From Escherichia phage ph0011: a stretch of DNA of 64,000 bases. The translations under genes and the position numbers were made by a program. Of this stretch, positions 863-23,165 are shown in pieces (position 1 is the first letter of the stretch; each line of letters starts with the position of its first letter). The stretch lies in the sequence record OP557969.1. One strand, given 5' to 3'. A model generated the notes under the pieces. The model was not told the origin of the DNA. It did not search any database and saw nothing but the letters and a program-made list of their open reading frames with translations.

Positions 863-1759
863 TTACTTACCAGAGATAACAATCTTCCCACTGAATGCAA
901 CATCAGAAGTAAAGATCACGTCACCAGTATTGCTAATTTGTGTATCAGTTATTACCAATTCAAATGGTGAGGATGCAACACTACCAGGTGTTTTATTTGC
1001 ATAAATCGAAACATACAAATTGTCTGGTGATTGTTTGTGTTCAGATGCTGAAATCGTGATGATGAACACATCGTTATTAGAAATCCAATCTGCTTGGTTT
1101 ACTAATTTACTATAAGGTACTGTCATTGTTGTTGCTCCTATAATGTTTACTTTAACATTTGCATAATCTGTAATTTTACCAATTACATCTATTGTGATAT
1201 CACCAGTGCCGCTTACTACTACAGAGGTTTGAAATACGGAATCCAATGTTATACTACCATGAGGATCACCCTGTAGTTGTACCATGATATCAGGACCACG
1301 CCCATGTACAGATGCTGGAAGGGTGTATGTGTAATGGTCGGTAGTATCTGAAACTAATGTAAATGAAGATACTGGTATAGTTTCAGTTGTTACATATGGA
1401 CTATCAGTTTCATGTGAACTACCTTTGAATGATTTCCAAATACCAAGATCTTTAATATAAATTTGAAGAACATTAGTTTCATCAACTAAAAAATACAAAT
1501 CACCATCTAACCCAATAGTTTCATCCGGTGCACTGGTTCCACGCAAAATACCAGAACTCCCACCACTATGTGCGTTTAGATATCCTAACGTAACCAGGTG
1601 TGTGTCAGCGGTCGGTTCACCTGCTGAAATTGGAAGAAGTTTTGTTCCTGAGTAGTTTTGTATTTGCACAACACTACCATTTGTGGTAATCTGTGCACCA
1701 TTCTTCCCAAGAATGAAGGACTTCTTCATGGTTCCTTCTAAATTAGAAAAAACTGCCAT
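863..1759 (-). CDS. Tail fiber / receptor-binding protein (298 aa) with conserved N-terminal anchor domain
   Basis: ATG at 1757-1759, RBS AAGGAGA; first ~110 aa (MAVFSNLEGTMKKSFILGKNGA...) paralogous to N-terminus of adjacent 713-aa ORF; C-terminus divergent. Confidence 0.6.
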   Translation of the reverse strand: MAVFSNLEGTMKKSFILGKNGAQITTNGSVVQIQNYSGTKLLPISAGEPTADTHLVTLGYLNAHSGGSSGILRGTSAPDETIGLDGDLYFLVDETNVLQIYIKDLGIWKSFKGSSHETDSPYVTTETIPVSSFTLVSDTTDHYTYTLPASVHGRGPDIMVQLQGDPHGSITLDSVFQTSVVVSGTGDITIDVIGKITDYANVKVNIIGATTMTVPYSKLVNQADWISNNDVFIITISASEHKQSPDNLYVSIYANKTPGSVASSPFELVITDTQISNTGDVIFTSDVAFSGKIVISGK

Positions 1760-3929: not shown

Positions 3930-5057
3930 TTAAATATTATCTTGAATAGGTTGGACCGGAGCTTGCCACGAAAGAGTACAAATAATTTCCATTTTACCAT
4001 AAGGACTGTTATTAACTGAATCATTGAATACACATGAAATAATTTCATCTACATCTGAAACTTCATGATTTGTTTCATTGACGATAAAACGCATCTGGTT
4101 ATTAATATCAAAGTAGGTTGTTGGTGCAATTACGGTTCCACCAATATTCTCGTTTGCTTCACCACCAAATCGAACAAACATATCAGTTACTGGTTGTGAA
4201 TAAGGTTGTAAAACATTTACATCTATATTAGAAACTACATATCCAGAAGGACAAGTCCCAATAACTAATAGAGCATTAGTCCATGATCTATCAATAACGT
4301 TTCTAATTGTTACAGTATCTTTGCCTGGTGCACCCGGTTCACCTTGCTTACCTTGAATACCTTGTGGACCTTCTTTACCACGGAATAAAATACCACTACT
4401 CCATTCTTTTGATGGTGGGGTGGTAGTTGTTACTTCATCCACATAATAAAGCTTACCATCAGTGTTGTTATAGAAACAATAATCAATTGGGAGGTTTTCA
4501 ATACTTGGAAATTGATCACCACTATCGTCAATATGAAAACGACCACGTGGACCTTGCTCACCACGGAAAGGAATACCATCACTCCATGTAGCTGTTACTT
4601 TTTGATAAAAATATAGTTTACCATCTTGTGTATTGTAAAATGTATAGTTATCAAAAAGACCAGAACTTGGAAAAGTAGTTCCTGCACTATCGATATGAAA
4701 AGGCTTACCAGCTTCACCAGTATCACCTTTACCAAATTCAACACTAGTCCAAGTACTGGTTTCTTCTTGTGCATCATTTGATTTAAAATACAGAGTACTT
4801 GTGTTATTTGCCAAACTAAGATAGCACCAGCCAAGCGGTTCACCAACTTTAAATTTATCAGATGGAACTTCAAAACCAATCTCATTAGGATAAAAGTTTT
4901 TACCGTTCTGACCATTTTGTCCCACAACAAGACCGAGATCTTGAATTGTATTATCTGTATATGTTACAATTAAATGACCAGCATTATTAATAACTAGACT
5001 TTTGATGCCTGAGTTATTACATGAACCACTGGACCCATTGTTAAATGTAATTGTCAT
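3930..5057 (-). CDS. Tail fiber protein with collagen-like Gly-X-Y segments and ~50-aa tandem repeats (375 aa)
   Basis: ATG 5055-5057, RBS AAAGGGAAA; GEQGPRG and GKEGPQGIQGKQGEPGAPGKD triplet runs; three repeats of the pattern DGKLYF...W..G.PFRG.QGP.G.FHIDD.G..FPS. Confidence 0.6.
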   Translation of the reverse strand: MTITFNNGSSGSCNNSGIKSLVINNAGHLIVTYTDNTIQDLGLVVGQNGQNGKNFYPNEIGFEVPSDKFKVGEPLGWCYLSLANNTSTLYFKSNDAQEETSTWTSVEFGKGDTGEAGKPFHIDSAGTTFPSSGLFDNYTFYNTQDGKLYFYQKVTATWSDGIPFRGEQGPRGRFHIDDSGDQFPSIENLPIDYCFYNNTDGKLYYVDEVTTTTPPSKEWSSGILFRGKEGPQGIQGKQGEPGAPGKDTVTIRNVIDRSWTNALLVIGTCPSGYVVSNIDVNVLQPYSQPVTDMFVRFGGEANENIGGTVIAPTTYFDINNQMRFIVNETNHEVSDVDEIISCVFNDSVNNSPYGKMEIICTLSWQAPVQPIQDNI

Positions 5058-5104
5058 AATATTTCCCTTTTATGAGTGAATGTCATATACCAATATTTAT
5101 CAGT

Positions 5105-5120
5105 ACGAAATACATTTCGT
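5105..5120. promoter_or_regulatory. Perfect 7-bp inverted repeat (ACGAAAT-AC-ATTTCGT) in divergent intergenic region, candidate operator
   Basis: Read directly from sequence; lies between minus-strand fiber gene start (5057) and plus-strand gene start (5167), next to ATAAATA-type motifs on both strands. Confidence 0.35.
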
Positions 5121-5166
5121 CACCATTAATAAATAAATGAAAGTTCACTACTAAAAGGGCTTAACA

Positions 5167-5664
5167 ATGGCATTAAGATCAAAAAACTTTCTTTTTAAAA
5201 GAAAAACAAAAGATGGTTCATGGCAAGATTTTCCTGAATCTGACAGTTGGTATCCAGCCCAATTGGATTATCAATGGAATGAACAAACATTACCACTACC
5301 AAGCGGTGGATATTATGGCAGCACTACAGGTTTGCATACCATTTCATTTACACTACGTAATTTCATTGGAAGAATTTATGTATTAGCAACATTAGCCAGC
5401 AATCCAACAGATGATGATTGGTTCCCAATTAAATTCACTGAAAGTTGTAAATATTATCTAGAATTTACGGATATGGTTATTTTAAATCCAAACGGTGGTG
5501 ATTTGATTAGACAACAAGGAACTACCGGAACATTTGCAGAAACATTAACAGGTAACTTTACATATCTTAAAGTTGGTATTGACCGAGATTATATCAGTAA
5601 GTACCCGTCTGATGTACAAAAAAGTTTAGCAGGTAAACTAGAACAAATTTTAATTAACTACTAA
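5167..5664 (+). CDS. Hypothetical protein (165 aa), first gene of plus-strand three-gene island
   Basis: ATG with RBS AAAGGG 7 nt upstream; no recognisable motif. Confidence 0.5.
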   Translation: MALRSKNFLFKRKTKDGSWQDFPESDSWYPAQLDYQWNEQTLPLPSGGYYGSTTGLHTISFTLRNFIGRIYVLATLASNPTDDDWFPIKFTESCKYYLEFTDMVILNPNGGDLIRQQGTTGTFAETLTGNFTYLKVGIDRDYISKYPSDVQKSLAGKLEQILINY

Positions 5665-5673
5665 GGATTAGAA

Positions 5674-6282
5674 ATGAAATTAGAAGCAGAACAACCAAAA
5701 CTATTTGTTAAAGGTCATGTCCTAATTACTGACGTTACTGATCCATCAAATCAAAAAATCGTTTTAGATAAATCTAACGCTATTCACCCAGAAAATATGA
5801 GTACTGCAATTGCTAATGCGTTAGCATACAATCAAGATAGTACCAGTATTCCTATTGGTTCAATTAGCGAAATGCGTTTTGGTAATGGTGGTACTGTAGT
5901 GTTAAGTACTGGGCGAGTCACGTACAAAAAACCACGCGTGACTTCCTTTGGTGGATTGTATTCACAAACATATTTAAAAAAAATCAACCCAAGAATTTCT
6001 GCTGGTATTGATTCACAGTATAATAACATCACAACAGTTCATATCCCAGGACAATCATATACTGATATTGTATGTATTTGTACACTTGGTTTAGGTGAAC
6101 CATCAGACCAAGGTGTAAGTTCAGGTACAAGTATGGATGGTACATATGTATTTGATGAATTGGGGTTATATACTGATGGTGATAGTGGTATTCCATTGAC
6201 ACATATCATTTTTCACCCAGTTGAGAAAAGTGCTAACCGTGTGTTACAAATTAAATACACAGTTCGTGTACAACTACAATAA
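5674..6282 (+). CDS. Hypothetical protein (202 aa)
   Basis: ATG 5674 with RBS AAGGA; tightly packed after previous stop; no recognisable motif. Confidence 0.5.
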   Translation: MKLEAEQPKLFVKGHVLITDVTDPSNQKIVLDKSNAIHPENMSTAIANALAYNQDSTSIPIGSISEMRFGNGGTVVLSTGRVTYKKPRVTSFGGLYSQTYLKKINPRISAGIDSQYNNITTVHIPGQSYTDIVCICTLGLGEPSDQGVSSGTSMDGTYVFDELGLYTDGDSGIPLTHIIFHPVEKSANRVLQIKYTVRVQLQ

Positions 6283-6294
6283 TGGGGTCAAATT

Positions 6295-7395
6295 ATGAGT
6301 GTAAGTTATACAATTTATAGAAGCAATGGTAGTGTTTATGCTACCATTCCAAATAATGTCATATTGGGGCCAAACCAACCAGGAAGTAACCCAGTTCCGT
6401 TGAATTTCGTCGGAAGAAATAAAGTAAGTTATGGACAAGCATGGAATGAAAACTTTTTACATTTAGTTGAGAATTTTAGTTCGGCTTCAGCACCACGCGG
6501 TAATGTGAACGGTCAACTATGGTACAGAAATGCTGGCAGTACTGGTGAATTATTGATATCATTGGTTGACAATGCTAGACAACCATCAGATGTTGTGAGT
6601 GAAGCTGAGTGGGCGTCTATTCCAATGATTTCTGTGTTTAATACCGTACCAGATGGTGAAAATAGTGTTATGGGTCGTATGGTATTAACCAGTAATGGTG
6701 ACTCACTTCGTGTATTAATGAAAAATAAAGAATGGCGTGAAATTCAAACATCACGCCCTGAGAATAAAGAATATACATCATTATTGGATATTAACTATGA
6801 TAATGGTAAAAAATATATTGAGTTTACACAAAATAATAGTACCAAGCCACTAGCATATTTTAACTTAGGAGGAACGTCACAAGTCGATACTAACAACTGG
6901 ACAACAGTAACTAACGGAACTGGTGTTTTTGAATTTGGTAGTAACTATTTCTATGAATTAAAAATTATGATTAGAGAGGTAAGCGATTCAACAGGTGAAA
7001 TTGTATCAGTTCCACATAATTCAAAAACATTTTTAATCAAAGGTCAATTTTATGTAGATAACCAAGGTACGTTTGTCCCTGGTTCTGTGGGTGCAAGTCA
7101 AATGCCAGACCCCCGCAGGATTACACATCTAGAAACCATTAAAGATGTCATTACCAGTAGTCGCCCGAACTGGGATGTGAACATGGTTATCAATGATGTA
7201 GATCCATCACTACCTAATCCAAACGGCACATCTAAAGCAGATTATGAAAACTGGGTTATTAACTCATTGAACTCTAATAAAAACTTGGGATTTAGAGTTG
7301 ATGGTAGTATTAGCAATCTTGCACCAGGTGAATCTGTGAAATTACAAGCATCAGTGTTGTTAAACATTACAGGTATTCCAATTATTGGTGTATAA
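6295..7395 (+). CDS. Hypothetical protein (366 aa), possibly virion or fiber-associated
   Basis: ATG 6295; G/N/S/T-rich composition similar to the fiber proteins; followed by bidirectional terminator. Confidence 0.45.
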   Translation: MSVSYTIYRSNGSVYATIPNNVILGPNQPGSNPVPLNFVGRNKVSYGQAWNENFLHLVENFSSASAPRGNVNGQLWYRNAGSTGELLISLVDNARQPSDVVSEAEWASIPMISVFNTVPDGENSVMGRMVLTSNGDSLRVLMKNKEWREIQTSRPENKEYTSLLDINYDNGKKYIEFTQNNSTKPLAYFNLGGTSQVDTNNWTTVTNGTGVFEFGSNYFYELKIMIREVSDSTGEIVSVPHNSKTFLIKGQFYVDNQGTFVPGSVGASQMPDPRRITHLETIKDVITSSRPNWDVNMVINDVDPSLPNPNGTSKADYENWVINSLNSNKNLGFRVDGSISNLAPGESVKLQASVLLNITGIPIIGV

Positions 7396-7400
7396 AAAAA

Positions 7401-7422
7401 GGAGCCACATGGCTCCTTTTTT
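7401..7422. terminator. Bidirectional intrinsic terminator
   Basis: Stem GGAGCC/GGCTCC with ACAT loop, A-run upstream and T-run downstream; sits between convergent genes 6295-7395 (+) and 7421-7885 (-). Confidence 0.75.
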
Positions 7423-7885
7423 AATATCTATATGGTAAACTATTGACAAACTGTGTACCTTCACGTATACTTTCCCATAATGAGTAAAAATCTTTCATCA
7501 AGTTTGTGTTAAGCAATGTGTTTTTTGCACCAGGGTGTAATGGTTTAGGCCACGAGCCGATTTTAACCCATGCATATCCAGAGCTTTCATGATTTAATGT
7601 TGGTATAAACTCATTCTCAACTACGATAACAAATGAATAATATTTAAATTTACCATTTTTTGTACAAAATACATCAAATGGTATAATATCAATAATATTT
7701 GGTATTGAGTCACCTAACTCTTCTTTAATTTCTCTCATAAGACCTTGTATTGGTGTTTCGTCGCGTTCAAGCTTTCCACCAACAAATGCCCAATTGTTCG
7801 AATAGGTACTTCTTTCAGAACGTAAATTTAACATCATATGTCCGGTACTTTTTGATAAAAATATAGCACCAACAGCTTCATTCAT
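7421..7885 (-). CDS. NUDIX hydrolase (154 aa)
   Basis: Nudix box GKLERDETPIQGLMREIKEELG fits Gx5Ex7REUxEExG; ATG 7883-7885 with RBS AAGGAGGTG. Confidence 0.85.
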   Translation of the reverse strand: MNEAVGAIFLSKSTGHMMLNLRSERSTYSNNWAFVGGKLERDETPIQGLMREIKEELGDSIPNIIDIIPFDVFCTKNGKFKYYSFVIVVENEFIPTLNHESSGYAWVKIGSWPKPLHPGAKNTLLNTNLMKDFYSLWESIREGTQFVNSLPYRY

Positions 7886-7897
7886 AACAACACCTCC

Positions 7898-9241
7898 TTA
7901 TTTGTCAGTGAAAGTTATTTTCCAATATCCTTGACGATAAACTGGCATAATACTTTTATGCCATTTAAATTTACCATTGTATCTATAATAACCATTATCT
8001 TCGTTGTTATAAATGTAATTACGCACAGTTGATGGGTCAATTAATTCAGCACCGTCGTTGGTAATTTTAAACAAATAATTCGAAGGAATTTCAGTTTCTT
8101 TGTAAATGATGTTATGCATACTGTTATTTACGTAATATTGTTCAGGTATTGCATCAAAAAGAACTGAGCTTTTTTGGACAAATCCATGAATAGTATAATC
8201 AACTGTATAGTTGCTACTATCAAGCTGAACGATAATTTTATTTGCATCTTCATCTTCACCATATGAAGAAATATAGCCTTTGAGTGGATTATCTTCTTCG
8301 ATTGATTGTTGAAATTTAATACCGACTTTTTTATCATCAAAATTGGGTTCCAAATATTTAAGATATTTTTCCCATGAGTATATACCACCATTAGGGGAAA
8401 CATCGGACAATGACTGACTAACTAAAGTTAGTTGATATGTATCTGGTAAATTATATAAAGAATTAGTTATCTCTTCAACTTTAATACATAAGTTTTTTGG
8501 TGTAAAGACATCAGTGATAATATCCGAATAGTCAGACATTTCAATGTCAAATTCATCACGAGCACCTTTTATATTAGTAGTGATCTGTTGAATCAATTTT
8601 GGTTTTTCAACAATAGCTGGTAAAGAAAACCATATTGTTGTTTCAAATGTCAATACCATAATGTCTAAATCTTGGTCAGTTCCTTGTGGAAATCCACGTG
8701 TAGAGAACTGACAATCAATCAACTCTACATCACTTAGTGATGTCCAATCCAACGGGTTTTCAGATAACTGAAGTTGAATACTCGGTGAAAATAAAGTTGA
8801 AATTTGCTCAAATAATTCCATCTTTGTTTGTATTTGAGTTACCCAGATATTCAAATCAAATGTAAATGTCCAAGGAACTGGGTTATGTCTTACGATTTTA
8901 TATTGTGAATCGAGTTCTTTTTTGTATTCATTAATGGCAGGTGATGTGTTTGTTCCCATAACTAATGTTTCATTCGCATTAGAACGTATACTTTTACGAT
9001 CCAGCTTTAGTTGATTAACACTGATTGTCATAATTGGTGCAGATGGAAGAACATTTTCACTATTACCATTGATAATTGCAGCAGCCATTCTTGATATATC
9101 CGCATAACGACATGGAACCTTTTTATATTTTGGGTTCCCATCAGCATCAACACCATTTTGTACTTGAAATTCACCAAAAACTCTGATAAGATGTTTCAGT
9201 ACTCTGCGAAATTGGCCGTCATAATAATAATCTATTTTCAT
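7898..9241 (-). CDS. Tail completion / sheath stabilizer-like protein (T4 gp15-like, 447 aa)
   Basis: N-terminal pattern YYYDGQFRRVLKHLIRVFGEFQVQ...YKKVPCRYADISRMAAAI resembles the T4 gp15 N-terminus as recalled from memory; ATGA overlap with upstream gene; position next to baseplate/fiber genes. Confidence 0.4.
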   Translation of the reverse strand: MKIDYYYDGQFRRVLKHLIRVFGEFQVQNGVDADGNPKYKKVPCRYADISRMAAAIINGNSENVLPSAPIMTISVNQLKLDRKSIRSNANETLVMGTNTSPAINEYKKELDSQYKIVRHNPVPWTFTFDLNIWVTQIQTKMELFEQISTLFSPSIQLQLSENPLDWTSLSDVELIDCQFSTRGFPQGTDQDLDIMVLTFETTIWFSLPAIVEKPKLIQQITTNIKGARDEFDIEMSDYSDIITDVFTPKNLCIKVEEITNSLYNLPDTYQLTLVSQSLSDVSPNGGIYSWEKYLKYLEPNFDDKKVGIKFQQSIEEDNPLKGYISSYGEDEDANKIIVQLDSSNYTVDYTIHGFVQKSSVLFDAIPEQYYVNNSMHNIIYKETEIPSNYLFKITNDGAELIDPSTVRNYIYNNEDNGYYRYNGKFKWHKSIMPVYRQGYWKITFTDK

Positions 9242-13163: not shown

Positions 13164-16100
13164 TTACTTAACTATTAATATTTTTTGAATATCATTACCA
13201 CGAACTCGTAGACTGTTAGTATACACAGAAAGGTCTATTGTATAACTATTTTGAGTATAACGTTTAAACTTATCATAACCGCCCAAATTAATTCCGTTGA
13301 AAGAATATGTAGTATCATGTTTGAAATCGTGTTCTGCACTGTACATTACTCCACGGAGTAAGTTGTTTGTATTTCTAACTTCAACTTTTTCATATCCAAT
13401 CGATATAATGTCACTCTTGTTAGCAGCGGAGCCTGATAACACATTATTTCTAACATTATAATGGCTTACGGAAAGAGGTTGTGCTACATAAGTTGTGTTT
13501 TCTTCACTAATGGTTGTTATGTTAGTGATGGTAGCGTCAGCCACATCAATATACATACTATCAACCATTGGATATTCATACACCCACACACCTTCATTAT
13601 TTTTTGTCGGTTTGATATCTTTCGCATCATATTCAATCACGTTAATTTCTAAACAATCCGGCATTTTAGTTCTTACTAATTCACTAAGAACACCTTCCCC
13701 TGTAATTGGTAGATTATAACCGTTGTCTATAGTAATACCATCATCATTAAATATTTCATTTGATACAACCCAAACATCAACATCATCAGGTGTTACTCCG
13801 TCATTATACTTACCACCATTTAAAGTAGTATCATAAAAAACGTCATAATTAATCACATCAATGGTGTAATTTCTGTTTTGCTCATATAATTTAATATCAC
13901 CCTTGGTAAATTCTGGGTCAGCAAATGTTCTAACACGAACAATGTTCAATGCAAGATGTTGTACTGGCTGATTCAGTTGTCCAAGTGTGATGTTATCATA
14001 TCGAAGAACATTACCAGAACTATCAACCAACTCAATCGTTTCTTTTCCTGTAGTTCTTACAGTGAATAGAATAGGAGTTGTATTATGTTTGATATTAGAC
14101 ACACGTAATATGGTTTCCCATGTACGATTTTGATATCGAATAAAATCTTCACCATCCGGTGTGAAAATCATCACCTTATCACCATCAGATAAGTCACTGT
14201 CAACGATTTCAGCCTCAGTTAAGCTATTAATAGAACGTACACGATAGAAATATTTTTCTTCAAACGGTGATGCCGTTTTATTAATATCATGTTCAATCTT
14301 AGCATATGAAGGAATACTAACAATTGCTTCTGTATGTTTATATGGGTTGATAATTGCCATACCCTCGGTTTTATATCTGCTATTATTACGCAATTGCACT
14401 AGTGATTCAGTATCAAATCCATAACCATCAACAGTGAATCTAATATGCCCAACTGCACGACTAGCTGGATTTATTTCAGATATATCGATAATATAAGGAT
14501 CAACTTCATCATCTTTAACTTCCCATTTGATAGCTGAAGTTTGTGATTCTAATGCAAGGTTGTCAAATGCATTCATATCATTGAAGAACTTAGCTTCAGC
14601 AATACTATCAATTATATATTGATAATCCGAATACATAGGGTTATTTTGATCTTGTGGTAAATCATCTAGATTTATTTCAGCAAGTTTAATCATTTCACCA
14701 TTAGTAATGAAATAATCTTCCATGAAATCATCAATACTTTTATCATCTGGTATACTTTGGTATTCACCATTGATATTTAAGTAGACATGTTTTCTTGGCA
14801 TCATAGTAATAGCATAGATATCAATAGGTGTTTTTGAAAGAATTTCTTCTGCTTTTTCATACATATCAGCAGAGTCTTTATCAAACAACCCTCTCATGGC
14901 TGCCAGTACATGGACCGCATCGGAATAGAAACGTGTATCACCACCAATTTCATCATAACGATAAACATATACACCGTATTCAACTTCAAGTTTCACTTTA
15001 ATATCATGTTCAGATGCATCTGGATATTTTTCTGTAATAAAAGAAATATATTTTTCATATAATTCTTTACTTATTTCAAAATATCCATAGTTATAATCAT
15101 TACTTGAAGAAAAACCTAATGGTAGTCTAGTACTTGGGTTATCATTATAAACCAAACCACTAAATCCACAGCCAACCTCATCATGAATCTTATCATCACT
15201 GATATCTTTATAAAGTTTCAAACGGTTTGCTAATGTATTGTACTGAACATAGTGTCGAAGGTCAGTAAACATTTCATTATGCGTTGATTCGTTATAAATG
15301 CGTTCAAGTGTAGCAGTAAATTCATCAGTTGCTTCTAAATCATCAGCATGTTCTTTATACCACTGGTTTACACCATTTGCAGTTCCTAGTGTTACATCTA
15401 ATTCTGGATAGTACGTTTGTAATAGATACGCATTAACCAAGTCAAATGATTGTTCATTATACACAGGGTAAGAATATATATAACGTTGTAATTCATAGGT
15501 ATTAACAGAATCTTTTTCATTTGATTGATACTTATTATTAACACTAATCAACTCATTAATGTTTGCCAAATCTTTATTCGGTTTACATTGAATATTATCA
15601 TAATGCATAATAATATCAATTTCTTGAAATCTTCTATTTGGTGCAATAAAATCACTAGGCAGAGAACCTACTTTCTCCCATTTTTTAGTGGTTTCATTAT
15701 ATTGAGCGTACTCATAATCCCAAATATCCTTTTCAGTTTTAACCCACGAACCATCAACAAAAATATACCCATTAGGATCTAAATCATTACAAAGACCTTT
15801 GATTAAGTCATCATCAGACGTTTTTTGTTCTATCTGTGAACGGATTTTTGTACGATATGGTTTCACCTCTTCAAAGTACTCAACAATTTGGTTAATCAAA
15901 TTATCATTTGAATAGTTTTGTACCAAAGATTGTTCCAAACCAACAATATAGATATAGGATGTTTTAAATACCCAATCAACAACACCCTGTTCTACGTGTA
16001 CATATTTGACCATATCAAAAACAATTTCACTTTGGTGTAAATCGAAAGAATTTTTTAGCAAAGCAAGTGCTTTTCTAATATTAATTTCACGATTACTAAG

Positions 16101-19100
16101 TGAACCGTCCTCATTATGAACATTATAATCTACATAAAACAAATCGTTAAGCTCAATAGTACTACGTTGTCGCCCAATAGCTTTCCAATAAATTGAATCA
16201 CGTGATTGAGATTTGATATATAAAGTCCAAATGTTTTCACTATCTGTGACTCTAATTATATCACCAACTTGATAGTTTTTAGCATTTGCTTCTTCTAAAC
16301 TTATCTCTTGGATGTAAGCAGTTTTGCTATCATACCCAACATCATACCAATCTGCATAAGACCAGTATTGAGTCATATCTAATGATGTTCCGAGTGATTC
16401 AACATAATCCGATTGCTTAATCATTTTATGTTGTCCTTCACCTTTATTTTCTAAAGTTATAGTAACAACACTACCTGCATTAGCTGGACTATTCATTAAC
16501 TGAATATATCCGTTTTCATCGAAGTGAATAAAATAAACAGCACTAGTTGATAATGGAGTCGGTAGATAACCGCTAGAACTTAAAATAACAGCGTCATTTT
16601 CTTTAAATTTATCCTTTTCAACTGCAATTACAAGTTCATTATTATAAGTTAATACACGGAACGAAACCTCATTAGGGTTAACTTCTGTAGTTTTAACATT
16701 AAACACATCTTCCATAACAACACTATTAGTAGTTATGTTTTGTGATCTATAATAATTATTTGCACTTTCTACAAAGTTTCTACGTGCCTCTATTATATTC
16801 TGGAACCAAGTTTTATTAGAGCCTAAACCAGTGTCAACTTCTGGATATAATAAATCTACAACCTTACCTGACTTCGTAGTTTCTTGACCAATTAGAGAGT
16901 TCCACATAGAGTCCCAAATTAGTGGGTTAAAGTTGTAACTTTCACCCTCTTTGCAAAGTTGATATTGGTCATGTTTAACAACTTCTGTATTGTCCATATA
17001 GTAAGAAATAGTCAAAACACTAGTATCATCATTAACTTCAAACTGCATATTACTAAGAATAAAAGAGTTTTCATTAATTGGTGCGAACCAAGGAATGTTC
17101 AACTGTGATGGATCTTTAATAATACGTGCAATGTCAGTACATGATTTTGTTCTGGTATGAATAGGTGGTACATAAATTGTATCACGTACCCAGAAATAGT
17201 ATTTTGTTACATAACTGTCAGTGGAGCTATCATATTCCAAAAATGTACTATAATTATCTTCAAGTGCTGTTCCACTTGGAAGATACATATTATTATTTTT
17301 GTTTTTCTTAGCAACATCTTTACAGTACTTATCCCAGTTATATGGTTCTACTGGTGAACAAACCCATTCCAACACATCAATAGTACTATGTGGCAACAAA
17401 CGACCCCAGTTGTAACGTTTATATTCATTGGTTGCGTCAATATCAACATTTCCATCTGCATCATAAATGGCACGAGTATAATCCAAATAAAAAGCGGTGC
17501 TAGTGTTCCACCATACTTGACCAACTTTTTCAGCACCCCACGCCTGAACCAATTCGCCATTGCTATTATATTGAGCAGGGTCGATTGGTGAAGTATATGT
17601 TACGTTTTGCATTGCTGCACCAGGAATAACACCATTAATTGGGTCATAAACATTTAGATATAATGCAGTAATGTTTGTACGTTCATCATATGTAGTTGGA
17701 CGTTCAAACAAAGTACTTTGTGGTGCTTTAAAACTATATTTTTTATCAATATATGCTTGACGCTCTTCAGTACTCACAAAACGCGAAACATAACGATACA
17801 AACGAGGGCGTGTATCTGGGTCAGTAAATTCGATATTAATTGAAGTATCAAATGGAACCACCATAACTTTGGAATCATCCCCAGCAGTATAATATTGACT
17901 TTCTACTGTTAAAGTATCTGGCATAAAGTTAGTTTCGTCCACAAAATAATAGTAATCACCATCTTCAAGAGGGATATCATCAGATAGAGTTACTTTACAG
18001 AATTTCTCAGCGTAAACATCTGTGGTTTCGATTGGTGTAATAGAAACCATTTTAACATTAGTGTCAATTAATTCAAAAATGTTCCATAACCCATTTCCAT
18101 CTTTGAACATCCATACTGATTCAGGATTTTCACCTTTACCATTGATATACAACATACGGTCATTGAATGCAGTACTGAAATCTTTCGTAGTATAAGATAC
18201 TTCATCTAATGTAACTGGACCAATATCAGGCAGTTGGATGTGTTCACTTCTACCACTACGCATTGGGAAAGAGAATTTACCATTTGGACGAGTAATCCAT
18301 TGTGGGTCTTTTCCTTGTTCACCAAAGAATACAATATTGTTTCCATTACCATTTGATGTTGCATTTTCATCAAAAGACATCATTTGTGGCTGCTGCTTAA
18401 ATTGGTCATTAATCAATTTAAATTGAAGGTTTTTCTTTCCATCGATGTTACCATATGTACCAACTTTAAACGCCCATTCTTGTAATGCTTTATATTCATC
18501 AGTATCATAGGATTTAGAAACACGAAGAACACGTTCTAAAACTTGGTTTGTACCTTTGTCATGAATAAATCCTTTATAGAAATCAACACGACTTACATCA
18601 CTACTAATCATACGTTGTAGATAATCACGAGATTGATAACCAATCAAATGGCTAGACAATTCTTGTAATTGTACATCGCTAACGGGATGTTCATTGTCAT
18701 AGTAATGTTGAAAATCTGTTACTAGAGTTTCAAATGATGGTATTGTACCAGATTCCAAAATAATAAAACCAGGTGCTTGTAATCTACCAGTCCATGAACC
18801 AGTAATGTACCCATACATTTTAATTAGTTCCTGGATAGAACCATAAGTTGGTTGATAGATATAATCACCAAAAATAGTCTTATCATCAAATATAACAGCA
18901 TGTTCATATGAACACAAACTTAAGCGGATTAATGCAATACGCTTATTAGAATCGGTTGTTCTAACAGTGAATATATTACCAATACGTGAAGTTTCGATTT
19001 CATATTGACGAATACCTTGGTTATTATCATCAAGCAATGACCACACACCACCATTATTTTGTGTAATAGACTGTACTGAACCAAAATCCGAACCAAACTT

Positions 19101-22100
19101 AGCATTTGCAGCACTTGGTGTACAAGAGATAAATTCGCCAGTTACCAGAGGACTCTGACTCCATATCACAAAATCTTTAGCAATAGTGTGCCAATCTTGC
19201 TGAATACCATCTTGATTAACATCTTCGAAAATCCAGCCATGTTCTTTAAGATACTCACCATATCCACAAATAAAAGTGTATACTTCTTGATAACTATTGA
19301 AAATAGTCCCATATTCAATAGAAGCCTCAGACTTCCATTCATTATAATGAACAATATTACGGTTTTCCAATTTAAGAGTTACTTTTCTTCCATTTTTTAC
19401 TGGAAGTTTATATTTAAATTTCGCACCAACCAAATCATATCCATCAATTTGATATGCACTACCATTCCATGTAATTTTGATGGCACTCATCTGTTCATCG
19501 CGAATGTTATTCGAACGCACCAGACCAATCGTTTGGTTTTCTTGTGAAATAAGACCAAATGATTTAGCGTTGAATGTTAATTGATCTGCTTTAGTAAAGC
19601 CACCAATTTTATGTCCCACATTTACGTAAGACGAACGTACAACATCTCCATATTTTGTAGTAATATTTTTATTTTGATACATCAAATAATCACTAACAAA
19701 CATTTGATATCCAATTGTTCTTGTGTTATCTTCACCATGAACAGTTGTGTTTTTATCAAAATTCACACGATTGCGGGTATCCCCGTACAGAAATTGTTCA
19801 CCAGTGGTGATAATTTCTTTCAAATTGTCATTACGGGTATCCCAATAATAGTTGGCAAATTGTGCAGGTTTAGCTTTATACAAAAGTAACATTTGGTCAT
19901 ATGCAAACAATGTGGTGTTCATATACGTAAATTCCATATCACCCATGTCGCCATACGCCCAAGGTTCTGCTCGGTGAACTAAAGATCCAGACACTAATCC
20001 TAAAACTTCAGGAGCAATATACTCAACCACACAAATATCTACACCGGATGATGTTTTATTTCCAGTTTTAGTAATTTTAAATGGTTGTACACCAAATCTT
20101 TTATATTTGTCATACTGACCACGGCGGTCGCCATATAAAATTGTCCCAGTACTACTATCGCCGATTGTATCATTTACATCCCAAAGTCCACTAGGAACCA
20201 AATCACCTTGTTCATCAGTTACAAGTGCCTCATATACATAAACTACATCACCATCACGTTCACCAACTTGGACAGCGGTTGGTTCATACTCTTGGTTCCA
20301 CCAAGTAGGACGTTGTGTAAACCCAAACATTTCCCATGGATGTGTAGCAGGGCGATATGTACCATATTGATCAGTATAGATTGCACGCCATGAACCACGA
20401 GCAGGAATTTCAGTACTTTTACCATCAACAACATAATAGGTTCCAGTATAGTTCCATGTTCTCCAGTTATTAGGATCATAATCATGTGTACTATTACTAA
20501 TACCATTAGATGCAGTGAAGTTAATATAACCACGTAATAGAAGTGTTTGTTTTTCTTCTGCACTATATTCAGTTTTTGTAAAATATGGTGTAGGGAAAAG
20601 ATCATCACTATTCAATACAGGGACATAATCAACATCTTTGAATTTATTGTCAATACTATTGAAAATTCTATTTTCAAGTTCATATACAACATCATCCATT
20701 TTATCAACACCATTGATAACACGGTATGCTTTAGAAATAATACCAGTATGGCTGATATTATAATAGCTAGGTTTACTACCAGCAGTTAGGAATGTTGCTT
20801 TCTCAGGAACGTATGCTTGTAGAATACCTAAAAACTGTGGAGTTGGTGGTATAAATGCACGAATAAGACCAGATGTACTACCCACATTGTCATAATAGAA
20901 TGGGAATGAACTATCACGACCCATATTAATAGTTGCCAAAATAGAATCAACGATGTTAGCTGCACTATTTTGTAAAAAGTTAGTTGGGTTTTCATTGTAC
21001 ATTCTAAGCATTTGTGTATTAAATTTATTAATGAATCTGAAATATTCAGATTGCATAAACATAGTTGCTTCAAATAAATCAATATCTTCATTTGCAGTAT
21101 GAGCCATCAATGGGAGCATAGAAGCTTCATTTTGAATAATTTTAGTTCCTACTCCATTATTCACTAATCCCTTAGCTAAACGTTCTTCATAATCGTTGAA
21201 GTCATCAGCATAACCACTAGTGATATTCTGTTGAATAATATCCTGAAAATGAAGAGTATAGTCTCCTTGATTAATATATATAATATTGGAGTTATATGGG
21301 TTATTTTGTAAGTTAATTGGAACTTCATATGCACCTAATTCTTTATCAGGTGTTACAGTACTGCTATAAGTTCTAATTTGAATAACAGAATCATCATCCA
21401 ATTCAACACTGTTATCGATTGTGATACTTTGCACTTGACCTTTTAATACATTCTTGGTATATTTGGAGATATTAACACCATCAACAACAACTTCAATAAT
21501 ATCAGAGTCATTGTCTAAAACTTTTTGTGCCAATTCAAAAGTATGGTCATATTTTAAAACCTGAATACCATCACCACTAATTTGATGCCAGTCCAAATAT
21601 GTTTCACGTTCAGCTTTATAGTACTGATATGTTTTATCAACTTCGATGACATATGCATACATACCCTCGACTGGTTCTTTAAACAGTTCCATATCATAAA
21701 CAGAACTAAAGACTCGATACATATCAGTACGTTTGACTTGAGGTGTCTGTTTTACAAATTGTTTAGAGAATTCTTTTGAACGCACCCAATCAGTTTGAAG
21801 ATTCATTTTATTATTTTCATCAATGATGTTATAATAATACAAACCACCGATTTCAACTTCAACACCAAGATGGTCATATGTATAACGTTGTGATTGTAAA
21901 AAGTTTTCATAAGTGTAATAGTTATAATCACCAAGTTCAATGTTATACCCATATACACTATCAGCCGCGTAGTTATAGTTGATTTTAAATCCAAATAATG
22001 GTGAACCTTTAAATGTACTGGATGGGTACGTGGTGCTGTTATCTAGTTTGATTCCATTACGATCATAAAGTTGGAATTGAGGAAAGACGTTAACACTTGG

Positions 22101-23165
22101 CTTCGCCTGTGCACGAACCCATAATGTTCCATTCCAATACATAGAATTATTGCCGTACTCATTTCCTTTTGTGACCAAAACTACGTCACCATTTTGTGGT
22201 TCACCACTTGGACGGGACTCAGTTTCTTCATTTGGATCTAGTGCTAAGCCATAAACGCGTGTACCATCTTGCATTTTTTTAACATACACTTTATAAATTC
22301 TATTGTTTTCACCATCATTACCAATACTGGTGAATAGAATACGCATACCATCTTGTGGAATAATACCATCAATGCGAATACCGCTATTGACATCTTTTTG
22401 AATAATATCTTCAGGTTTGATACTATCAGAAAAAAGTTCAACTGTTCCACGGAATTTTGTACCGTAGTTAATTAGCTCGATATTTTTATTATATTCGATA
22501 ATTGGTGCACGAGCACGAATAAAACGAGAATCTTGCATTAGCTCTTCAGTCAAGATAGAACCGTCTTCTAGTGTTTCACCTAAAGTATACCAAAAGTTTT
22601 GCAAAGACCATGTATTACCATTAAGTGCTCCACGTTCCATTACAATGTAATCAGGTGTAATGATATTATAAGAGTTTTTGGTATCCCAAAGATACGAACT
22701 AAAATTGTTCATTTTATTTGGGTTAATTGCAGGAGTCCATGCATAAAACTTACCGTTAAATAAACGACTTTCATTATCGGTTAGTGCTCCGTAATGACTC
22801 ATGTATCCAACAAGATCATCATAAAATTGAATTGAACGAATTGTTGAATCATCATTTTTAGAGACATAAGCAGTGGACAACTGATATAGTTGACGTGCAA
22901 CAGAACTTTCATGCAAGAAGATATTACCAGCGGCAGCCGGAGAACCCATGTCACCAATATAACCGTCAACCAATTCGTTTTCAGCCGGATTAAACCATTG
23001 TTGAATAACATCATCACTGACTTTTTGAATATCTTCTAAGCCTTGCATCCACTCAGGCAATCTTTTGATAAAAAGCTTTTTCTGTACTGCTTCAGCCATC
23101 TGTGTAGGTTGAAACTTAAAATTATTAGTCATTTTTTCTGGACTCCATATAATTCGTTCATTCAT
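13164..23165 (-). CDS. Giant virion structural protein (3,333 aa), likely fused baseplate-wedge/fiber protein
   Basis: Uninterrupted 10-kb ORF with ATG 23163-23165; Y/N/D/T-rich; sits in the slot between gp6-like and neck genes where T4 has gp7-gp12/wac; own terminators on both sides. Confidence 0.6.
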   Translation of the reverse strand: MNERIIWSPEKMTNNFKFQPTQMAEAVQKKLFIKRLPEWMQGLEDIQKVSDDVIQQWFNPAENELVDGYIGDMGSPAAAGNIFLHESSVARQLYQLSTAYVSKNDDSTIRSIQFYDDLVGYMSHYGALTDNESRLFNGKFYAWTPAINPNKMNNFSSYLWDTKNSYNIITPDYIVMERGALNGNTWSLQNFWYTLGETLEDGSILTEELMQDSRFIRARAPIIEYNKNIELINYGTKFRGTVELFSDSIKPEDIIQKDVNSGIRIDGIIPQDGMRILFTSIGNDGENNRIYKVYVKKMQDGTRVYGLALDPNEETESRPSGEPQNGDVVLVTKGNEYGNNSMYWNGTLWVRAQAKPSVNVFPQFQLYDRNGIKLDNSTTYPSSTFKGSPLFGFKINYNYAADSVYGYNIELGDYNYYTYENFLQSQRYTYDHLGVEVEIGGLYYYNIIDENNKMNLQTDWVRSKEFSKQFVKQTPQVKRTDMYRVFSSVYDMELFKEPVEGMYAYVIEVDKTYQYYKAERETYLDWHQISGDGIQVLKYDHTFELAQKVLDNDSDIIEVVVDGVNISKYTKNVLKGQVQSITIDNSVELDDDSVIQIRTYSSTVTPDKELGAYEVPINLQNNPYNSNIIYINQGDYTLHFQDIIQQNITSGYADDFNDYEERLAKGLVNNGVGTKIIQNEASMLPLMAHTANEDIDLFEATMFMQSEYFRFINKFNTQMLRMYNENPTNFLQNSAANIVDSILATINMGRDSSFPFYYDNVGSTSGLIRAFIPPTPQFLGILQAYVPEKATFLTAGSKPSYYNISHTGIISKAYRVINGVDKMDDVVYELENRIFNSIDNKFKDVDYVPVLNSDDLFPTPYFTKTEYSAEEKQTLLLRGYINFTASNGISNSTHDYDPNNWRTWNYTGTYYVVDGKSTEIPARGSWRAIYTDQYGTYRPATHPWEMFGFTQRPTWWNQEYEPTAVQVGERDGDVVYVYEALVTDEQGDLVPSGLWDVNDTIGDSSTGTILYGDRRGQYDKYKRFGVQPFKITKTGNKTSSGVDICVVEYIAPEVLGLVSGSLVHRAEPWAYGDMGDMEFTYMNTTLFAYDQMLLLYKAKPAQFANYYWDTRNDNLKEIITTGEQFLYGDTRNRVNFDKNTTVHGEDNTRTIGYQMFVSDYLMYQNKNITTKYGDVVRSSYVNVGHKIGGFTKADQLTFNAKSFGLISQENQTIGLVRSNNIRDEQMSAIKITWNGSAYQIDGYDLVGAKFKYKLPVKNGRKVTLKLENRNIVHYNEWKSEASIEYGTIFNSYQEVYTFICGYGEYLKEHGWIFEDVNQDGIQQDWHTIAKDFVIWSQSPLVTGEFISCTPSAANAKFGSDFGSVQSITQNNGGVWSLLDDNNQGIRQYEIETSRIGNIFTVRTTDSNKRIALIRLSLCSYEHAVIFDDKTIFGDYIYQPTYGSIQELIKMYGYITGSWTGRLQAPGFIILESGTIPSFETLVTDFQHYYDNEHPVSDVQLQELSSHLIGYQSRDYLQRMISSDVSRVDFYKGFIHDKGTNQVLERVLRVSKSYDTDEYKALQEWAFKVGTYGNIDGKKNLQFKLINDQFKQQPQMMSFDENATSNGNGNNIVFFGEQGKDPQWITRPNGKFSFPMRSGRSEHIQLPDIGPVTLDEVSYTTKDFSTAFNDRMLYINGKGENPESVWMFKDGNGLWNIFELIDTNVKMVSITPIETTDVYAEKFCKVTLSDDIPLEDGDYYYFVDETNFMPDTLTVESQYYTAGDDSKVMVVPFDTSINIEFTDPDTRPRLYRYVSRFVSTEERQAYIDKKYSFKAPQSTLFERPTTYDERTNITALYLNVYDPINGVIPGAAMQNVTYTSPIDPAQYNSNGELVQAWGAEKVGQVWWNTSTAFYLDYTRAIYDADGNVDIDATNEYKRYNWGRLLPHSTIDVLEWVCSPVEPYNWDKYCKDVAKKNKNNNMYLPSGTALEDNYSTFLEYDSSTDSYVTKYYFWVRDTIYVPPIHTRTKSCTDIARIIKDPSQLNIPWFAPINENSFILSNMQFEVNDDTSVLTISYYMDNTEVVKHDQYQLCKEGESYNFNPLIWDSMWNSLIGQETTKSGKVVDLLYPEVDTGLGSNKTWFQNIIEARRNFVESANNYYRSQNITTNSVVMEDVFNVKTTEVNPNEVSFRVLTYNNELVIAVEKDKFKENDAVILSSSGYLPTPLSTSAVYFIHFDENGYIQLMNSPANAGSVVTITLENKGEGQHKMIKQSDYVESLGTSLDMTQYWSYADWYDVGYDSKTAYIQEISLEEANAKNYQVGDIIRVTDSENIWTLYIKSQSRDSIYWKAIGRQRSTIELNDLFYVDYNVHNEDGSLSNREINIRKALALLKNSFDLHQSEIVFDMVKYVHVEQGVVDWVFKTSYIYIVGLEQSLVQNYSNDNLINQIVEYFEEVKPYRTKIRSQIEQKTSDDDLIKGLCNDLDPNGYIFVDGSWVKTEKDIWDYEYAQYNETTKKWEKVGSLPSDFIAPNRRFQEIDIIMHYDNIQCKPNKDLANINELISVNNKYQSNEKDSVNTYELQRYIYSYPVYNEQSFDLVNAYLLQTYYPELDVTLGTANGVNQWYKEHADDLEATDEFTATLERIYNESTHNEMFTDLRHYVQYNTLANRLKLYKDISDDKIHDEVGCGFSGLVYNDNPSTRLPLGFSSSNDYNYGYFEISKELYEKYISFITEKYPDASEHDIKVKLEVEYGVYVYRYDEIGGDTRFYSDAVHVLAAMRGLFDKDSADMYEKAEEILSKTPIDIYAITMMPRKHVYLNINGEYQSIPDDKSIDDFMEDYFITNGEMIKLAEINLDDLPQDQNNPMYSDYQYIIDSIAEAKFFNDMNAFDNLALESQTSAIKWEVKDDEVDPYIIDISEINPASRAVGHIRFTVDGYGFDTESLVQLRNNSRYKTEGMAIINPYKHTEAIVSIPSYAKIEHDINKTASPFEEKYFYRVRSINSLTEAEIVDSDLSDGDKVMIFTPDGEDFIRYQNRTWETILRVSNIKHNTTPILFTVRTTGKETIELVDSSGNVLRYDNITLGQLNQPVQHLALNIVRVRTFADPEFTKGDIKLYEQNRNYTIDVINYDVFYDTTLNGGKYNDGVTPDDVDVWVVSNEIFNDDGITIDNGYNLPITGEGVLSELVRTKMPDCLEINVIEYDAKDIKPTKNNEGVWVYEYPMVDSMYIDVADATITNITTISEENTTYVAQPLSVSHYNVRNNVLSGSAANKSDIISIGYEKVEVRNTNNLLRGVMYSAEHDFKHDTTYSFNGINLGGYDKFKRYTQNSYTIDLSVYTNSLRVRGNDIQKILIVK

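Follow-up and report, generated by a model that had tools for sequence, protein, structure and literature searches.

The collagen-like virion fibre protein of the 121Q-like jumbo phage ph0011: domain architecture, repeat-number stability and probable role

Does the collagen-like protein encoded at positions 3930..5057, on the minus strand, of the Escherichia phage ph0011 sequence (OP557969.1) carry genuine collagen-type segments, and is its internal repeat a source of variation among related phages? The analyzed stretch, hereinafter the window, comprises 64,000 nucleotides (nt) of a 121Q-like (Asteriusvirus, "RaK2-like") jumbo coliphage, and the gene in question is a single open reading frame (ORF) with an ATG start that encodes 375 amino acids (aa) and is followed by a stop codon. 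The original prediction, made from the sequence alone, described the product as a fibre protein in which Gly-X-Y tracts, considered to be collagen-like trimerization or spacer elements, are embedded in three tandem repeats of ~50 aa that were expected to be prone to expansion and contraction. We find that the protein is a conserved virion fibre of RaK2/121Q/GAP32/CBB-like jumbo myophages, that its Gly-X-Y tracts are under purifying selection for glycine and for the triplet register, and that the repeat number is fixed, not unstable, among related isolates. The protein is probably a homotrimeric, segmented accessory virion fibre that consists of an N-terminal anchor, a stalk of beta nodes and collagen segments, and a distal binding head.

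Along the protein, a leader is followed by a module that we denote A, a Gly-X-Y tract, a module denoted B1, a second tract, module B2, a third tract, module B3, a longer tract of seven triplets, and a C-terminal jelly-roll domain (Table 1); module A (residues 17-45) and the jelly-roll domain were left out of the original prediction. The internal periodicity of the protein is significant: in a Smith-Waterman self-alignment, the best off-diagonal score is 187, compared to 35.8 +/- 6.7, with a maximum of 59, in 60 shuffles. Each natural unit of the repeat starts with a Gly-X-Y tract and continues with a beta module of ~45-55 aa, so that unit 1 spans residues 46-108, unit 2 residues 109-164 and unit 3 residues 165-225. 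Units 2 and 3 are clear copies of each other (family-profile hhalign probability 99.5%, E value 9e-23, 54% aa identity). Unit 1 is divergent, reaching an E value of 1.6e-3 at best against unit 2 and being missed by the hidden Markov model (HMM) of units 2 and 3. When compared, with its Gly-X-Y part excluded, to diverse copies of the module from outside the family, the family profile of unit 1 yields a probability of 93.5% and an E value of 2e-7, the probability for the reversed-sequence control being 0.6%, and the order of beta strands is alike in the three units in the AlphaFold2 (AF2) model. This profile comparison and the strand order place unit 1 in the same module type as units 2 and 3. 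Thus, of the three predicted repeats of ~50 aa, B2 and B3 are plain to see and B1 is recognizable only at the profile level; the proposed consensus, DGKLY...FHID...FPS, occurs literally twice rather than three times, and its phase differs from that of the natural unit. The N-terminal 45 residues are the best-conserved region of the protein, with 69% mean pairwise identity in the alignment of relatives; the corresponding value for the head is ~59%.

The protein contains four tracts of at least three Gly-X-Y triplets, at residues 46-54, 111-119, 166-174 and 227-247 (3, 3, 3 and 7 triplets, respectively), a number reached in 1 of 20,000 composition-preserving shuffles, which bears out the tracts noticed in the original prediction. 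Across 30 relatives, the glycine columns are 96-100% conserved and the X and Y positions are mostly conserved at ~40-50%, with Y at ~79% in tracts 1 and 3. Insertions and deletions in tracts 1-3 comprise whole triplets only (+/-3 residues), and the variation of tract 4 among the relatives amounts to one triplet or an interruption of a single residue. The short tracts are bracketed by conserved aromatic residues (F55, F108, F120, F/W164, F174 and F225). The orthologue denoted P0058 (L005 10001-11251), a distant one that occupies the identical syntenic slot in a metagenomic jumbo-phage contig, has ~55 uninterrupted triplets that replace B2, B3 and their tracts and pass the threshold of the Pfam Collagen family (PF01391). 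The presence of this collagen tract, the strongest indication that the Gly-X-Y tracts are collagen-like, suggests that the central region of the ph0011 protein is a collagen-compatible and hence trimeric stalk.

Conceivably, the tracts could be mere flexible glycine-rich linkers between independent beta modules, in which case no triple helix would form and a trimer would not be required. The proline content is modest, the short tracts have only three triplets each, and three triplets are far shorter than the collagen helices known to be stable on their own. Furthermore, the match of the ph0011 protein to the Pfam Collagen family, which covers residues 227-245 only, scores 17.2 bits, below the gathering score of 27.2, and in the AF2 monomer model the tracts have a predicted local distance difference test (pLDDT) score below 50; such low confidence is expected of a monomer model given that a triple helix needs three chains. 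Flexible linkers would not account for the strict, nearly invariant glycine periodicity and the restriction of indels to whole triplets, for the fixed tract length between conserved aromatic residues, for the long bona fide collagen tract that takes the place of two modules in P0058, or for the many other fibres in which the same modules alternate with long stretches of collagen, and we consider this explanation quite improbable. With glycine invariant, the triplet register kept and a ~55-triplet tract in P0058, the tracts appear to act like genuine collagen-type spacers rather than being incidental, as was originally proposed.

The proposed instability of the repeats, in contrast, is contradicted by both the comparison of relatives and the self-comparison of the DNA. 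The same A-B1-B2-B3-head layout is found in all ~57 clusters of full-length homologues (356-387 aa, 44-95% identity), and the same three units are present in all 71 phage records at a coverage of at least 80%; the hosts of these 71 phages belong to Escherichia, Salmonella, Klebsiella, Erwinia, Cronobacter, Pectobacterium, Serratia, Yersinia and Xanthomonas. At the nucleotide level, B2 and B3 are 58% identical, the longest exact repeat in the coding sequence is 10 nt, and Tandem Repeats Finder detects no unit-length DNA repeat in the fibre gene. The sole DNA-level repeat is a micro-repeat of 9 bp x 2.7 at 4341-4364 (ACCTTGAAT on the plus strand) that encodes the QGIQGKQG part of tract 4. Given the 58% identity, the absence of exact repeats longer than 10 nt and the constant number of units, the B2/B3 duplication is older than the whole clade, and there is no substrate for slippage or unequal recombination between the units. 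An origin of the repeats by recent duplication or slippage was considered and rejected, the DNA repeat search and self-alignment having recovered just the micro-repeat. With no near-identical DNA units and a constant copy number, the gene does not belong among unstable tandem-repeat (contingency-type) loci. That the gene is nevertheless a rapidly evolving repeat locus, with the number of units varying between isolates, is extremely unlikely: the micro-repeat is the one site where triplet slippage is conceivable, matching the +/-1 triplet variation of tract 4 (one triplet fewer or a one-residue difference in some relatives), and deep orthologues do differ in module content, but the number of modules is identical in all the homologue clusters and phage genomes compared, and B2 and B3 have diverged beyond any exact repeat of more than 10 nt.

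At deep divergence, the variation takes the form of module replacement, as in P0058 and two further orthologues. P0067 (L009 8001-8987) contains two B1-type modules and none of the B2/B3 type; the anchor and the jelly-roll head are kept in both P0058 and P0067. P0057 (L008 8001-8813) is a natural chimera, in which the first 113 residues (the leader, A and B1) are 75% identical to those of the ph0011 protein, the junction falls exactly inside Gly-X-Y tract 2 ('GKGD|AVVTF'), and a DUF4376-like C-terminal domain follows. The location of the fusion point within tract 2 suggests that Gly-X-Y tracts serve as junctions for domain swaps. Every variant at this slot keeps the N-terminal ~110 residues and it is the distal part that is swapped; the distal two-thirds of the fibre are thus exchangeable.

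The best full-length family match of the protein is to phrog_13565 ('tail protein'), with residues 1-375 aligned to profile positions 1-375 at an E value of 8e-217. The phrog_13565 members 121Q gp574, phAPEC6 gp253, CBB_228, GAP32_222 and RaK2 gp062 are full-length orthologues with 55-95% aa identity that resemble the ph0011 protein in length, module order and synteny, without any substantive difference; in databases, the orthologues are annotated as 'structural protein', 'tail protein' or 'hypothetical protein'. The ph0011 gene shows 92.7% nt and 95.5% aa identity to its counterpart in phage UE-S1, and ~87% nt identity to 121Q gene 574 ('structural protein'; 91% aa identity), PBECO4 and phAPEC6 gp253. 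A 111-aa ORF with a TTG start (4595..4930, minus strand) is nested in the fibre gene in another frame of the same strand; it is without annotation in the 121Q, RaK2, phAPEC6 and CBB records and most likely is a chance ORF.

Orthologues of the protein have been detected in virions by mass spectrometry (MS). In purified phAPEC6 virions, gp253 was represented by 14 peptides with 65.6% coverage, near the 68% of the sheath protein (PMC7247149), and CBB_228 was identified by 13 peptides with 44% coverage (PMC5259590). Together with the family match and the location of the gene within a tail-fibre gene cluster, these data support the prediction that the protein is of the fibre type. Among the papers checked on RaK2, the Alcyoneusvirus adsorption complex, phAPEC6, CBB, fEgEco12, PhiKp24 and the tail-fibre atlas, MS detection is all that was found for this protein, with no account of its collagen-like or modular architecture or of its location in the virion.

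The fibre gene heads a leftward run that continues with a pectate-lyase-type tailspike gene and, at 863..1759, a gene for a virion structural protein of 298 aa; the proximal subunit of the long tail fibre is encoded next in the loci of 121Q and CBB. A comparison of synteny with RaK2, 121Q, phAPEC6, CBB and metagenomic contigs revealed a conserved gene order, namely, the gp15-like gene, the NUDIX gene, three structural genes on the opposite strand, the fibre gene, and then further fibre genes. The odd placement of the NUDIX gene among structural genes is kept in every relative examined.

An AF2 monomer model was built from an alignment of 31 sequences (mean pLDDT 77). In this model, the B modules are small four-strand units (pLDDT 85-88), and residues 248-375 form a beta sandwich (pLDDT ~90). 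Among solved structures, the fold of this head comes closest to trimeric proteins of phages, either capsid cement or virion-associated ones (KHP40 gp16, 7dou; Pam1, 7eel_H; GP4, 8h89_J). In BFVD, the nearest non-orthologous models comprise tail fibres and collagen-like proteins of giant viruses and of phages, the latter with C1q-type heads. The head is matched by 5 of the 150 best representatives listed, and these five are full-length members of the family. No coiled coil was found in the fibre protein and no match to Phage_fiber_2 in the Pfam scan.

These features suggest a mechanism in which the N-terminal third of the protein (the leader, A and B1) would dock onto a conserved partner in the fibre apparatus of the tail or baseplate. 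The stalk would be organized as 'beads on a string', with four beta modules (one A and three B) linked by segments of three triplets and followed by the segment of seven triplets. Each Gly-X-Y segment would form a short collagen-type triple helix; aromatic caps (F108/F120, F164/F174, F225 and F55) would bracket the short helices, and the flanking modules would keep the three chains in register. The jelly-roll head would trimerize distally and bind a ligand, which could be a common envelope carbohydrate or another component of the virion. This ligand probably is conserved, rather than a strain-specific receptor, given that, between phages with widely differing hosts, the head retains ~59% identity. 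By a rough estimate, the fibre would be ~30 nm long, including ~14 nm of collagen. From the constancy and high conservation of the N-terminal part and the swapping of the distal part, we infer that the N-terminus is the anchor and is proximal to the virion, with the C-terminus being distal; the location in the virion and the ligand are likewise put forward as predictions.

Several points weigh against this scheme, in addition to the brevity of tracts 1-3 and the sub-threshold Collagen score discussed above. MS did not reveal RaK2 gp062, the authors of that study doubting that it had a morphogenetic role (PMC3622015); no density in cryo-electron microscopy (cryo-EM) maps has been assigned to the fibre protein; and the trimeric state and the triple helices in the 9-residue tracts are features that we infer rather than observe. 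A receptor-binding tip that is specific to its host would not usually be as similar as this head is between phages whose hosts differ so widely, and 'receptor binding' may thus be a misassigned function. Finally, the closest solved folds of the modelled head are those of capsid-binding proteins, so that the opposite polarity may be possible.

With the polarity reversed, the protein might be one of the unassigned 'hairy' decoration fibres that phAPEC6- and CBB-like phages bear on the capsid, the sheath or both, with the cement-like C-terminal trimer as the anchor and the N-terminus pointing outward. Apart from the fold of the head, this possibility is compatible with the 'triskelion', apparently trimeric, capsid fibres and three rings of tail fibres of phAPEC6, the genes for which are unassigned (PMC7247149), and with the similar MS coverage of gp253 and the sheath protein, which suggests that gp253 is present in many copies. 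The gene, however, lies in the tail-fibre cluster rather than the head cluster, and the constant N-terminal third combined with the replacement of the C-terminal domain in P0057 is the usual pattern of an N-terminal anchor. Moreover, CBB hairs are ~119 nm long (PMC5259590), as opposed to the ~30 nm estimated for the fibre, and orthologues are present in RaK2 and GAP32, phages that have not been reported to be hairy (PMC5259590). A decoration fibre thus seems unlikely, and the long CBB/phAPEC6 'hair' in particular was rejected as the main explanation on the grounds of length and phyletic distribution.

A different role would be that of a fibritin-like whisker or collar accessory fibre, in which the head binds another part of the virion, for example, the long tail fibre, and aids assembly or retraction rather than host binding. 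Conservation of both ends across unrelated hosts (69% for the N-terminus and 59% for the head) fits a phage-internal partner better than a variable host receptor, the predicted fibre is trimeric and of modest length, and the gene is located between the gp15-like gene and the long-tail-fibre genes, a position that loosely resembles that of wac in T4. Nevertheless, the protein resembles neither fibritin nor the foldon in sequence or fold and has no coiled coil, the argument is purely one of analogy and position, and the exchange of the head for a DUF4376-like domain in P0057 is more typical of receptor-binding tips; we regard this role as rather improbable. The segmented accessory fibre anchored by its N-terminus accordingly remains the explanation that we favor.

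The genes surrounding the fibre gene (Table 1) include candidates for the docking partners of such a fibre, namely, the products of the three divergently transcribed genes at 5167..7395. Their orthologues CBB_230, CBB_231, phAPEC6 gp250c and phAPEC6 gp251c were detected in virions by MS, CBB_229, another orthologue from this block, is annotated as 'structural protein', and the proteins have no Pfam domains. The tailspike gene that follows the fibre gene occupies this position in 121Q-like phages but is missing from RaK2 and CBB, in which the fibre gene is followed by other genes; its product shows weak Pfam matches to pectate-lyase-like and endosialidase N-terminal domains. The arrangement has the appearance of a depolymerase gene having been inserted into the fibre operon in a particular lineage. 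A module-like motif spotted by eye in the N-terminus of the tailspike was rejected given that the tailspike ORF has no match to the module B HMM at an E value up to 10, and, when all six translation frames of the 64-kb window were searched with the same HMM, no second ORF with this module was found. Further away, a 3333-aa ORF (13164..23165, minus strand) is the orthologue of 121Q gp582 and of phAPEC6 gp245, a 382 kDa protein detected in virions.

Table 1. Features of the fibre gene and its neighbourhood, with positions in the window
Feature	Position	Strand	Description and basis
Fibre gene, whole ORF	3930..5057	-	Orthologue of 121Q gp574, phAPEC6 gp253, CBB_228 and RaK2 gp062 (phrog_13565 match, synteny)
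Ribosome-binding region	5058..5075	-	AAGGGA 8 nt before ATG, read from the sequence; inside the 109-bp divergent intergenic region 5058..5166
N-terminal leader, residues 1-16	5010..5057	-	MTI(S/T)FNNGS..SC.N; near-invariant in the family; low pLDDT in the monomer model; predicted part of the virion-proximal anchor
Module A, residues 17-45	4923..5009	-	Three-strand beta meander, GI.S..IN..GHLIVTY.DN.I.DLG.VVG (alignment, AF2 model, profile search)
Gly-X-Y tract 1, residues 46-54	4896..4922	-	GQNGQNGKN; 3 triplets, directly followed by invariant F55
Module B1, residues 55-108	4734..4895	-	Divergent copy, F..N..G...P....GW.YLSL.....LYFK......W...F
Gly-X-Y tract 2, residues 109-119	4701..4733	-	GK-GDTGEAGKP; 3 triplets
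Module B2, residues 120-164	4566..4700	-	FHIDSAG..FP....Y.FYN..DGKLYF.....W....PF; HMM independent E value 5e-24
Gly-X-Y tract 3, residues 165-174	4536..4565	-	R-GEQGPRGRF; 3 triplets
Module B3, residues 175-225	4383..4535	-	HIDDSG..FPS...LP.DYCFYN..DGKLYYV........W..GILF; HMM independent E value 2e-23
Gly-X-Y tract 4, residues 226-247	4317..4382	-	R-GKEGPQGIQGKQGEPGAPGKD; 7 triplets; only sub-threshold Pfam Collagen hit; only DNA micro-repeat
C-terminal jelly-roll beta-sandwich head, residues 248-375	3933..4316	-	pLDDT ~90; only in this orthologous family
Tailspike, 713 aa	1776..3917	-	phrog_6117 'colanic acid degradation', E value 4e-260; begins 12 nt past the fibre gene
Three conserved genes (165, 202 and 366 aa)	5167..7395	+	phrog_13657, phrog_11259 and phrog_14394; divergent from the fibre gene
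NUDIX/MutT hydrolase gene	7421..7885	-	Between the gp15-like gene and the structural block
T4 gp15-like tail-sheath stabilizer (tail completion) gene	7898..9241		Upstream of the fibre gene, beyond the NUDIX gene

Modules A and B extend far beyond this family. A profile search that covered 1.84 billion representatives retrieved 1,218 proteins sharing module A or B at E values up to 1e-3. Module A occurs in up to 17-19 tandem copies, always with Gly-X-Y tracts between them. Arrays of this kind are found in the large proteins P0068, P0069 and P0081, which also contain Listeria-Bacteroides repeats (P0068 among them) or BspA-type leucine-rich repeats (LRRs), indicating that module A is not limited to phage fibres. 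Module B is present in P0065 and P0127, in P0100, which has five copies along with a Phage Tail Collar domain, and in two further tail proteins, one of them phiKZ-like and 1093 aa long and the other from Vibrio phage VF16, the gene for the latter adjoining an L-shaped-tail-fibre assembly gene. PHROGs designates module carriers as 'tail fiber protein' or 'collagen like minor tail', and the occurrence of the modules in such proteins speaks for the favored reading. As in the ph0011 fibre, the same beta modules alternate with Gly-X-Y tracts in P0100, P0065, P0127, P0068, P0089 and the phiKZ-like and VF16 proteins, which differ in having their own heads and anchors and far longer collagen tracts.

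Pfam and NCBIfam scans of the fibre protein and ten other module carriers detected no family for module A or B, the only hits, apart from spurious ones below threshold, being to Collagen, Collar, LRR and List_Bact_rpt in regions outside the modules, and a sequence search of the PDB with the whole protein and the profiles of modules A and B yielded nothing significant (a collagen peptide at an E value of 0.87 and WW domains at 0.1). The core of module B (Y.F.n..dGklY......W; residues 138-160 and 193-221, ~4578-4646 and ~4395-4481) resembles the WW-domain signature. With the WW prototype as the best PDB match at the above E value and no Pfam WW match, module B was not assigned to the WW domains, and the likeness could reflect convergence on a three-strand meander. 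More tentatively than the role of the fibre itself, we suggest that modules A (~30 aa) and B (~50 aa) might represent widespread, uncatalogued families of trimer nodes that set the register of the chains and thereby enable aromatic-capped, 9-residue collagen helices. If so, they would embody a general 'segmented collagen' design of phage and bacterial surface fibres, of which this 375-aa protein, with an anchor, four nodes and a head, would be the smallest complete example.

Overall, the protein is neat in its organization but otherwise a fairly ordinary member of the collagen-like phage fibres; such fibres are well known, the family is already in the databases, and the current understanding of collagen-like phage fibres is not overturned. 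What is modestly new is that the domains have been mapped explicitly, that the collagen segments are very short and clamp-bounded, that the two widespread beta modules lack a match in Pfam, NCBIfam and PDB sequences, and that the head is similar to capsid cement proteins. A 'hypothetical' or 'structural' protein of the RaK2/121Q clade hereby gains a domain map and a testable predicted role, that of a trimeric accessory fibre, and the map should help to assign the many fibre densities that still await assignment in cryo-EM maps of these jumbo phages. Defining modules A and B, which are found in more than 1,200 protein clusters, would improve the annotation of phage fibres. Should three-triplet helices indeed form between the modules, the fibre would provide a compact model for minimal, clamp-stabilized triple helices.

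Among known systems, a collagen stalk combined with a jelly-roll head is found in BclA of Bacillus anthracis, in C1q and in the spike protein P5 of phage PRD1. The ph0011 fibre resembles these proteins, as well as the phage collagen proteins labelled 'C1q domain containing' in BFVD, in its arrangement of an N-terminal anchor, a Gly-X-Y stalk and a beta-sandwich head; in such designs, the C-terminal head probably nucleates the trimer. The cement proteins KHP40 gp16, Pam1 and GP4, which show 7-13% identity to the head, are free-standing proteins of ~125-155 aa that occupy three-fold sites of the capsid; in contrast, the head is a predicted fibre tip encoded among tail-fibre genes, and accordingly we do not assign it to the cement class. 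An experimental precedent that favors the proposed scheme is provided by the side-tail proteins EPclA and EPclB of Escherichia coli O157:H7 prophages, in which short collagen domains are held by flanking trimerization domains (PMC3368898). These proteins are associated with phage tails, as the fibre described here probably is, and they are trimeric, dumbbell- or stalk-shaped, with a non-hydroxylated collagen domain (PMC3368898), a state that the ph0011 fibre would share if it is a trimer. EPclA and EPclB combine one long collagen domain with the PfN, Pf2, PCoil (an alpha-helical coiled coil) and PfC domains, whereas in the ph0011 fibre four short tracts are split by beta modules A and B and lead to a jelly-roll head.

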